A stretch of 63,946 nt of DNA, the filler included, from Stramenopiles sp. TOSAG23-6 (Eukaryota), in the NCBI GenBank assembly GCA_900128565.1. It is 33 parts of 33 records of this genome, joined end to end, with 100 filler letters (N's around TTAATTAATTAA, not from the genome) between each part and the next. Parts side by side here need not be neighbours in the genome. Positions count along the whole stretch, not along the records: positions 43,744 to 45,096 come from LT639191.1; 32 more parts are not named here. One strand, written 5' to 3'. The position numbers and the translations under genes were made by a program. The notes beneath the pieces are model-generated. The model was not told where the DNA came from and ran no database searches. It worked only from the letters and a program-made list of their open reading frames with translations. Positions 43,801 through 45,095 of this stretch are shown one piece after another. Positions within the stretch are counted from its first letter, which is position 1. The number at the start of each line of letters is the position of its first letter.

Positions 43801-45095
43801 ATAATTCAAGAGTTCGAAGACCGAGATGAGTTAACTCAGCACGAGAGCGAAGCGCAAGTATCACAGGTCTCAATAACAGAGACAGATTCTGTAGCAATGA
43901 TGACAACGGTGCTGGGATTAAAAGACATAATTCAATTAACATTTCAGTTGTGCTCACATAAATAGTGAAAAAATATTCAAAAAAAATATCGTTAGGTACG
44001 GATTGTTTTTGAAAAAAAAATAAATTTGAAATTAATGATGAAAACTTACTCCAGATTTCGAATGCACATCGACTTGCTCTTGAAGTCGTAACAAAGCTTC
44101 AAGAGTTCCAGGAAGAAGAGGAACAAACTCCTTGTACAATAATTCAAATTTACCCGCAGCAACACGACGAAATAAAGTACGAATAAGTATGAGAAAGTTT
44201 AATGGGCATTTGACTTTAACAGCACAACTTATGCTCCTACGTACTATATTTGTGAGGTGGGGTTGAAGTACTAACTCATTATCAGCAAAAAGCGCAACTG
44301 ATCCAAACACAAGCTTGAATAATTGTAAAACAACTCGTGCTTCTACCTCTTGCTTTTTGGTTGCTTCTTCTGATAATAATTTCGAATCTTTATCGTCTTC
44401 AGATGTACTATCTACAACAACTTTGTTTTCACCAAGTAATTCCTGGTTTCTGAAACTAGTAAAGTCTGGATGTTCACATGTACTATTATGTGGACTTAAT
44501 GGTGCTAATCGTGGTATTCTATCTACGAGGTAAACTAGAAGAACATCTGCAACAATACCTGATGTATGATTATTAGATAGAAGGTGTTGAAACATTGCAA
44601 TAGCTGCTTCATCTTCCAATAGCGCATCATATAGGGCACCTACTTGGACGCTAAAAACATCTCGAAAAGAGTGTGGATCTAAAACAGTAAAAATCGCCGC
44701 AAAATGAGCCAAAATATCTAATTTTTCAATCTTTGATTGCTCGTCAAGTTGATTATTTCCAGCTTTTTGCACACTAGATACATTATTATATACCCGGAAA
44801 GAGCCAGTAGCAGACTGACAAAACTTCAAAATCAAACGGAGTTCAAATTCAGACAAGCGATATTTTTTCCGCCGTCTCTTTGGTCCAACAGATTTATCTT
44901 TTGACGAATCTGTATCTTTTGTAGTTTCTGCAGACGGCGTCTTCGGCGAACTATTTTGTGCTCTTTGGTCATAATTTGATACACACCACACAACTGTTTT
45001 GAGCCCTAAAATAATAGTTTTAATCAAAGCCTTAACATCTCGCATTATATCAGGCGATAGTTTGTCATCACCAGCAATACAATCTGGTAATAATG
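43801..45095 (-). CDS. TRRAP: TRRAP/Tra1 HEAT-region fragment
   Basis: LFKLVFGSVALF, GKFELLYKEFVPLLP, IELCLLIPAPLSSLL, GLRTLEL. Confidence 0.9.
43958..44049 (-). other. Family intron, GTAAGT...AT
   Basis: GGA|GTAAGT...TTCACTATTTAT|GTG AGC is in frame; the next AG gives a stop after two codons. Confidence 0.8.

Follow-up and report, generated by a model that had tools for sequence, protein, structure and literature searches.

How are introns cut that begin with GT, end with AT, and can in most cases be slid by 2 nucleotides (nt) to give a formally equivalent AT-AC intron? The question is raised by a 92-nt intron in the TRRAP/Tra1 gene of Stramenopiles sp. TOSAG23-6, in a stretch of 63,946 nt of joined short contigs from GenBank assembly GCA_900128565.1 that is called the window here. 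An earlier note on this DNA had placed the cuts in the GT-AT register, and the analysis described below upholds that placement on stronger grounds, which include the 5′ arm of the small nuclear RNA (snRNA) U1, the fit of U6, stop codons that other registers create in MATE and NDR kinase genes, and homologues of TMEM260 and fumarase. It is quite likely that these elements are U2-type spliceosomal introns, cut GT...AT, which form one transposon-like repeat family, and that the host U1 has been altered to match them.

The TRRAP intron and its surroundings comprise the following features:

43958..44049, minus strand: TRRAP/Tra1 intron, 92 nt, GTAAGT...TTTAT, flanks GGA| and |GTG, a non-ambiguous junction; it reads GGA|GTAAGTTTT...GTACCTAAC...CACTATTTAT|GTG
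43991..43999, minus strand: motif resembling a branch point, GTACCTAAC, with the putative branch A at 43992, 34 nt short of the AT end
44050..45096, minus strand: upstream TRRAP exon, whose last 200 codons match positions 356-500 of the Pfam Tra1_central profile
43800..43957 (lower bound approximate), minus strand: downstream TRRAP exon, matching Tra1_central 504-555

Removal of this intron joins exons that match consecutive parts of the Tra1_central profile, and the next family intron, which starts GCATGT, comes after the downstream exon. No alternative AG lies in frame with the donor of the TRRAP intron; splicing at any of four other GT/GC-AG pairs would cost 7-16 residues. A branch role for GTACCTAAC is suggested by its resemblance to the CUAAC with which U2 pairs. 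Three further introns of the window also lack an upstream AT:

19250..19352, minus strand: family intron, AAA|GTACGT...AAAAT|GTT, with an in-frame AG 30 nt downstream
27297..27453, minus strand: SNM1 intron, CT|GTACGT...GACAT|TCT, directly before an LTHFHSDH motif
47219..47326, minus strand: family intron, TT|GTATTT...TACAT|GTA

These four junctions read as the earlier note had described them, and an open frame is left on removing each intron.

The source assembly (21.1 Mb, AT-rich, eukaryotic, 6,236 contigs) probably derives from a MAST-3 stramenopile, as judged from Prp8 residues 150-900, which are 92% identical to those of the closest named relative (source label GSMAST32, which we take to denote a MAST-3 marine stramenopile); the remaining Prp8 matches listed, the named ones including oomycetes, have 70-81% identity. 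The motif GTACCTAAC occurs 11,047 times in the whole assembly versus 179 times for a control motif, although copy counts are inflated because the assembly holds artefactual duplicate, triplicate and mirror-image contigs (exact copies at window 52451-55250 and 58251-62497; mirror images C2 and C4). Introns were called in ~857 kb by seeding on the branch motif and scoring the donor from +3 to +12 and the acceptor from -22 to -5, with the terminal intron positions excluded from scoring. Of 294 unique candidates, 170 passed score and frame filters and 131 formed a strict set (higher score, 82-135 nt) to which the counts below refer; this set lacks the introns of SNM1 and TRRAP as well as long members, and the 47219 intron was miscalled by the pipeline.

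The family has a consensus of ~100 nt, GTAYGTTTT ... TTCGTACGAAATTTTGTACCTAAC ... AAATATTTTTYCAMAATAC, a median length of 98 nt, and a branch motif 35-50 nt from the end (5th-95th percentile). Mean pairwise identity is 0.735 versus 0.548 for shuffled sequences (400 pairs), a similarity that extends beyond splice signals. All intron phases are represented (47/43/41), and in the genes examined the elements are in sense orientation inside conserved coding sequence, with open reading frames on either side that are in frame with each other. At positions outside those used for calling, the donor carries A at -2 (77%), T at -1 (86%), G at +1 (91%) and T at +2 (93%), and the acceptor carries Y at -3 (96%), A at -2 (89%) and U at -1 (90%). 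Two properties absent from the earlier note are flanks that resemble target-site duplications, considered below, and relaxed ends: donors are GT in 113 of the 131 introns, AT in 8 and GC in 4, and acceptors are AT in 106, GT in 7, AG in 6, TT in 4 and AC in 3. Roughly four in five introns therefore end in U (AT 81%), and the family does not carry the YAG acceptor used as a criterion for U2-type introns.

The family seems to make up almost the whole intron complement, because canonical donor and branch signals are depleted in 853,516 bases (AGGTAAGT 18, 33 expected; TACTAAC 85, 187 expected) and the family branch form TACCTAAC is enriched (298 versus 33 expected). Pairing of TACCTAAC to U2 GUAGUA requires one bulged extra C. 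In 35 of the 131 introns the branch region has its commonest version, TTCGTACGAAATTTTGTACCTAAC (for example window 22664-22672 and upstream), which is foldable as a small hairpin ending inside the branch motif; a TTTT/TTTC variant preserves the hairpin pair, and such a hairpin could hide or present the branch point. A tandem pair of branch motifs is present in members 35431-35619, 3362-3480 and L046 3212-3383, which suggests internal duplication or nested insertion.

Which register the host machinery would use can be read from its snRNAs. A head-to-tail array of the U5, U2, U1 and U4 genes fits into 640 bp (L004 9-645; G000:C1146) with spacers of 2-23 nt, possibly as one transcription unit, and an identical copy is found on C6122; the U6 gene lies outside the cluster (L001). 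The U2 GUAGUA, the U5 loop and the U6 ACAGAGA are canonical. The only U1 found (54.1 bits, E 8e-12, whole model covered, Sm site present) starts with AAACGUACAUGG instead of the canonical AUACUUACCUGG, in a gapless alignment to the Rfam 5′ arm. Its nucleotide changes are U2>A opposite donor position +7, U5>G opposite +4 and C9>A opposite -1; each complements the family consensus (T 100% at +7, Y 100% at +4, T 86% at -1), and the 5′ start that results complements the family donor CAT|GTACGTTT exactly. Across the 131 donors the altered arm forms on average 9.15 Watson-Crick and 1.0 G-U pairs of 11, versus 6.93 and 0.40 for the canonical arm, and the duplex is better with the altered arm in 131/131; since calling had already drawn on donor positions +3 to +12, that share of the U1 and U6 fit is circular, and the match from -2 to +2 is independent. 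The first 12 nt of U1 occur 130 times genome-wide versus 11 times for a control, a count that would fit if most of these occurrences were antisense donors. The 23-nt U2-U1 spacer contains no branch motif and no family sequence beyond one further A, so the U1 arm is not simply an inserted element. In a metagenome scan for the U2-U1 tandem, none of 64 loci was a U2-U1 gene pair. Together, the U1 changes suggest a spliceosome re-tuned to the family introns.

U1 C8 and A7, which normally face donor G+1 and U+2, are unchanged, and by homology the cut is therefore placed after AT and before GT. The U6 ACA forms 2.59 of 3 pairs with the unslid donor, 0.03 when the register is slid by 1 nt and 1.55 when it is slid by 2 nt (131 donors). 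Prp8 residues 1442-1600 are nearly identical to those of human, with Gln1594, Gly1597, Leu1598 and Arg1604 kept by position. The Prp8 gene itself (L026 2724-10000; G000:C84) runs for more than 1,970 codons without a family intron, and its frame is shifted near the RNase H domain by a run of ambiguous bases, probably an assembly fault. Among other splicing factors, 23 CCCH matches on 16 contigs included none that was U2AF1-like on the 13 contigs read, and the sole zf-U1 match, a 509-residue protein, appeared WBP4-like; absence of U2AF1 or U1C is not implied.

The protein products allow the registers to be compared at individual genes. At the MATE junction (L070 5107-5213, GT|GTATGT...ACAT) the unslid cut gives LEWWAFE and a 2-nt slide gives a TGA stop, and TGA does not encode Trp here (Prp8 has 49 TGG codons and no internal TGA). 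The match of MATE exon 2 to plant DTX14 begins at the first residue of the exon; the alignment of exon 1 to PDB entries stops short of the junction. In TMEM260 the unslid cut yields I, the residue of the closest homologue, and the slid cut yields N, which is found in 0/8 homologues. Read in this way, MATE and TMEM260 would exclude AT-AC, though not a 1-nt slide. The AG-ending siblings should exclude both slides: in an NDR kinase gene (L046 2483-2623, AT|GT..AG) the unslid cut gives GYPPF, where CBK1 carries GWPPF, and a slide of 1 or 2 nt gives a stop, whereas in a class I fumarase gene the unslid cut gives the M of PQYM/PEYM (3/3 solved-homologue alignments shown) and slides give R. The earlier note had held that AG-ending siblings yield the expected Met only in the GT register; for fumarase this is borne out by solved homologues, and for a MAPK gene (ELLTM) the frame was seen by eye only. 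The first splicing cut is set by U6 and precedes acceptor docking, so AT-ending members with the same AT|GTATGTTTT donor should be cut as the NDR sibling is.

Conservation of the ends points the same way. The end pairs of the 131 introns are GT-AT in 94 unslid, TG-CA in 82 slid by 1 nt, and AT-AC in 67 slid by 2 nt. Among the 35 discordant junctions, AT stands at the intron end in 21 and upstream in 7 (p 0.013), which modestly favours the unslid cut, and at these 35 clean junctions the three registers create 0, 1 and 2 stops. With the U1 arm, the U6 fit, the stop codons and the homologues taken together, we regard GT-AT as the best reading of the register, and a probable one.

On this account, the U1 arm AAACGUACAUG would pair with CAU|GUAYGUUU from -3 to +8, including the last U of the exon, and the canonical U6 ACA would read +4 to +6 (YGU), placing the first cut before G. 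U2 would pair with CUAAC, and the acceptor would lie ~40 nt beyond the branch point, behind a conserved U-tract/CAMAAUAC element that positions it. The P complex of yeast has G(-1) paired to G(+1), A(-2) to the branch A and Y(-3) to Prp8 Gln1594 (available text of 10.1101/212811). The acceptor here may be docked through a G-U terminal pair, with Y(-3) and A(-2) kept and the relaxation, from G to U, confined to the last base.

The origin of the family bears on why the register is so often ambiguous. In 11 cases other than AT the flanking dinucleotide equals the last two bases of the intron, versus 1.1 expected (p 5e-5), and the covariation between flanks is found at -2 and -1 and weakly at -3; no allele with an empty site was seen. 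This pattern is most likely a 2-nt target-site duplication, usually of AT, around a GTAT...ATAC element whose terminal inverted repeat is limited to 4 nt (GTAT..ATAC). The introns have most likely spread as a non-autonomous transposon, an introner (reportedly a subject of Huff 2016), that duplicated a 2-nt target, with the downstream copy becoming the acceptor. Because of this duplication the register is ambiguous at 96/131 junctions, in agreement with the earlier statement that a 2-nt slide is formally equivalent at most of them, and a missing upstream AT is by itself undecisive. The four junctions without an upstream AT had been offered as tie-breakers; GT..AT remains the more parsimonious there, but the residues do not decide (G or D, in a loop, for TRRAP; K or N at 19250; D or E at 47219), and SNM1 leans slightly in the opposite direction. 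CTCAT and TTCAT ends, cited earlier as slides to TC and not AC, are indeed present (59113, 35200, 36242). In a two-gene Harbinger-like transposon (L164; G000:C2432 and three identical contigs), which starts TTA|GGCCGG, the gap separating the stops of the two convergent genes contains a partial branch motif of the family.

Several observations, beside the circularity of part of the U1 and U6 fit, weigh against the GT-AT account. The U1 score lies below the Rfam cut-off (54.1 vs 69.5 bits), and U1 is known from genome sequence only, its two copies perhaps being an assembly duplicate. Position +1 is not invariant, given the 8 AT and 4 GC donors. In the SNM1 junction column, F is present in 127, V in 8, I in 7 and L in 0 of 142 motif-bearing homologues (150 matches), so that of the two candidate residues I, from the slid cut, is the better supported, if either is. 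Of 21 upstream deviations 2 are synonymous, versus 3.5 expected, and the presumed exon copy accordingly has no sign of purifying selection. The stop test on the 170 looser calls is flat (4, 6 and 6 stops for the unslid, 1-nt and 2-nt registers) because miscalls dominate. As to an autonomous partner, one transposase family was searched, and of 5 DDE_Tnp_4 matches in the assembly the 2 read had no intron-like termini; the one element whose terminus can be read begins TTA|GGCCGG, which differs from the ends of the introns. When L046, which carries four discordant junctions, was compared with three low-cover RNA runs (47, 877 and 117 contigs), none of 12 joints listed lay at intron ends, and two RNA contigs cross the NDR donor unspliced. 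These runs, all metatranscriptomes, contain 7-8% of the sequence words of window 39450-49449, and at such low cover the L046 result is no evidence either way.

Of the competing explanations, a mixed or sliding register survives best, though we consider it improbable. It holds that either cut is used at concordant junctions and the protein-preserving cut at discordant ones, which would accommodate the flank covariation, the relaxed +1 and -1 positions, and junctions that read equally well or better when slid, such as SNM1 and a CCCH gene (V or D; homologues of the latter were sought and none was found). However, U6 sets the first cut before acceptor docking and fits one register, all decisive cases agree, and the covariation is explained by target-site duplication.

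An AT-AC (generally NN-AC) register, with both cuts 2 nt upstream and A(+1)/C(-1) ends, appears slightly less probable again. The formal equivalence of the two readings, the lean of SNM1 and the lack of synonymous enrichment upstream speak in its favour, as does the A-C terminal pair that the active site tolerates (available text of 10.1101/212811). Against it stand the stops in MATE, NDR and one further gene, N in TMEM260, R for M in fumarase, ends that are less conserved (AT 92 and AC 91 of 131), and the fit of U1 and U6 to the unslid cut only. Signals of the minor spliceosome are also lacking: the U12 donor ATATCCTT, which the earlier note had called absent, is found twice in the window (62778, plus strand; 41351, minus strand), yet never at an intron start, and neither it (43 copies, ~60 expected) nor GTATCCTT (19, 33 expected) or TCCTTAAC (6, 33 expected) is enriched in the 853,516 bases. 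The proposed search for U11, U12 and U6atac gave no match at E 0.1, which is weak evidence in a possibly incomplete assembly, with prokaryotic controls and U4atac outside the search. The family behaves like a set of U2-type introners and not like U12 AT-AC introns, although its acceptor is not YAG.

Ordinary GT-AG splicing through nearby AGs, with the AT ends not being splice sites, is very unlikely. An in-frame AG lies within 30 nt in 54/106 AT-ending introns, but out-of-frame controls give 44 and 42, and the other 52 have no in-frame AG. A U-tract and YAG 12-19 nt past the branch motif are present in 19/106, of which 7 are usable and 12 would break the frame or introduce a stop. With the family donor there is no AG option for TRRAP, SNM1 or 47219, and in MATE the alternative AG would delete nine residues that align with DTX14 251-259. 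An AG is therefore, on these sequences, apparently not sought as acceptor.

Even less credence can be given to a 1-nt slide (TG-CA) or to non-spliceosomal removal guided by a terminal inverted repeat, ATGTAT...ATACAT. TG-CA ends occur in 82/131, a short inverted repeat exists, and MATE and TMEM260 are blind to a 1-nt slide, yet such a slide puts stops into NDR and one other sibling and gives fumarase an R, covariation within the repeat is weak (p ~0.02 at two positions before correction), and the conserved branch motif and complementary U1 indicate a spliceosome. That the elements are retained in RNA, as dead miniature inverted-repeat transposable elements or an assembly artefact, is hardly credible despite the unspliced RNA contigs and exact duplicate contigs, given ~11,000 copies, their sense orientation in frame in the conserved coding sequence of the genes examined, the use of all phases, and the U1 match.

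Within the GT-AT account, a bolder possibility, which we regard as doubtful, is that the splice consensus was recoded from CAG|GU...CAG|G to CAU|GU...CAU|G, with U1 C9>A pairing both the exon-terminal AU and the acceptor AU. Insertions flanked by GT or TT end in AT in 11/20 cases, those flanked by AT end in AG in 3/92, and upstream YAGs are skipped, so AU would be a preferred and not merely a tolerated acceptor. A pairing of U1 with the acceptor in fission yeast is reportedly claimed in the title of Reich et al. 1992, and is said to involve the CU at U1 positions 9-10.

Other members illustrate the range of ends and flanks within the family:

58732..58830, plus strand: AG-ending sibling in the class I fumarase gene, AT|GTACGC...ATAG, with PQYM from the unslid cut only; its contig is triplicated in the window
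35431..35619, minus strand: AG-ending sibling in the MAPK gene, AT|GTTTGT...AATAG, giving ELLTMQKK (read by eye)
47669..47764, minus strand: sibling with AG on both flanks, AG|GTATGT...ATAG, a target-site-like duplication
8795..8904, plus strand: sibling with a relaxed GG donor, AT|GGATGT...ATAT
22615..22705, plus strand: typical ambiguous member, AT|GTATGTTTT...GTACCTAAC...CCAAAATACAT|GGA
25177-25269, 25365-25464, 25731-25841 and 47486-47595, minus strand: further typical ambiguous members

The eight members with A at +1 include L046 3977-4071 (minus strand), L046 2171-2281 and L038 4247-4340; six of the eight end in AT and one in AC, which makes the latter a genuine AT-AC pair without any slide. 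At L006 7540-7680 two family members seem to be joined directly, without an intervening exon (...CAATATAT|GTATGTTTT...). The fumarase encoded at window 58251-59599 is of class I (Fe-S), and its best solved matches are what we take to be trypanosomatid-type enzymes. Telomere-like AACCCT repeats occur within coding sequence as Asn-Pro runs (window 1500-2400, 8940-9000 and 46245-46280, among others).

These findings have consequences beyond the genome in question. Pairing with the donor G in the active site is held to keep the acceptor G fixed (available text of 10.1101/212811), and introns that end in U while the Prp8 core is unchanged and U2, U5 and U6 are canonical would show how far this rule can bend. 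An exon-facing change in U1 offers a concrete molecular handle on splice-site recoding, and U1 resolves GT-AT from AT-AC by homology at the roughly three quarters of junctions where complementary DNA cannot. A role of U1 in acceptor choice, and intron-generating transposons as a force in spliceosome change, become testable; if U1 does read both ends, the system would test in nature whether U1 helps to define 3′ splice sites, and would exemplify a core snRNA reshaped by a mobile element. On such genomes, gene prediction that takes AG ends for granted will fail. For one MAST-3 assembly, complete protein matches were too scarce to serve as training data for gene prediction, and neither of the two mentions of introns in the available text raises the AG problem (PMC5778133).

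Several known systems share some of these features. Like U12-type AT-AC introns, the family has an AT...AC reading after a 2-nt slide and a strongly conserved branch motif, and GU-AU is listed among rare minor-intron termini (available text of PMC8199999); unlike them, it has no RTATCCTTT donor, no TCCTTAAC enrichment, a branch ~40 nt from the end, and no U11, U12 or U6atac match. Like introners, it consists of thousands of similar short introns in which a flanking direct repeat supplies a splice site (PMC12130899, PMC11282704), but the 3′ ends accepted in the introner survey are AG and AC, no autonomous partner was found here, and the main text of that survey makes no mention of MAST, stramenopile or GT-AT in its available portion (PMC12130899). 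The 2-nt AT target-site duplication resembles that of ISL2EU (PHIS superfamily), whose target is A|AT|T, whereas the flanks here prefer C/A/T before and G after (available text of PMC4482050).

The closest likeness in acceptors is to the unrelated lineage Fritillaria, as described in the accessible part of its report (PMC13326754). There the acceptor used most often is AT (F. pellucida 44%, F. borealis 34%), a YAY triplet lies both before the 5′ splice site and at the intron's 3′ end, as in this family, and the minor spliceosome was lost, as may also be so here to judge from the snRNA search. Unlike F. borealis, in which the main classes are AG/AC and AG/AT and U2AF is duplicated, the present donor is mostly GT, one family is dominant and AT reaches 81%; moreover, a change of the U1 5′ end is stated not to be the route in Fritillaria, and here U1 is altered. 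No published GT-AT genome in stramenopiles and no U1 position-9 change was found in a literature whose coverage was incomplete (most subscription journals and supplements lay outside it).

For U1 itself, arms that coevolved with atypical donors are described in Entamoeba (AACAAAC) and Mastigamoeba balamuthi (ACGUAC) in the available text of 10.1101/2022.06.08.495308. The U5>G change is shared with M. balamuthi (ACGUAC), and the extra A for +7 is a change of the same kind. Coevolution of U1 with donors and the use of AT acceptors are thus each precedented, and the altered U1 is what this analysis adds to knowledge of the GT-AT family: in the available descriptions of Entamoeba and Mastigamoeba the changes face the intron only (10.1101/2022.06.08.495308), whereas here C9>A faces the last base of the exon and the acceptor has shifted in parallel from AG to AT.
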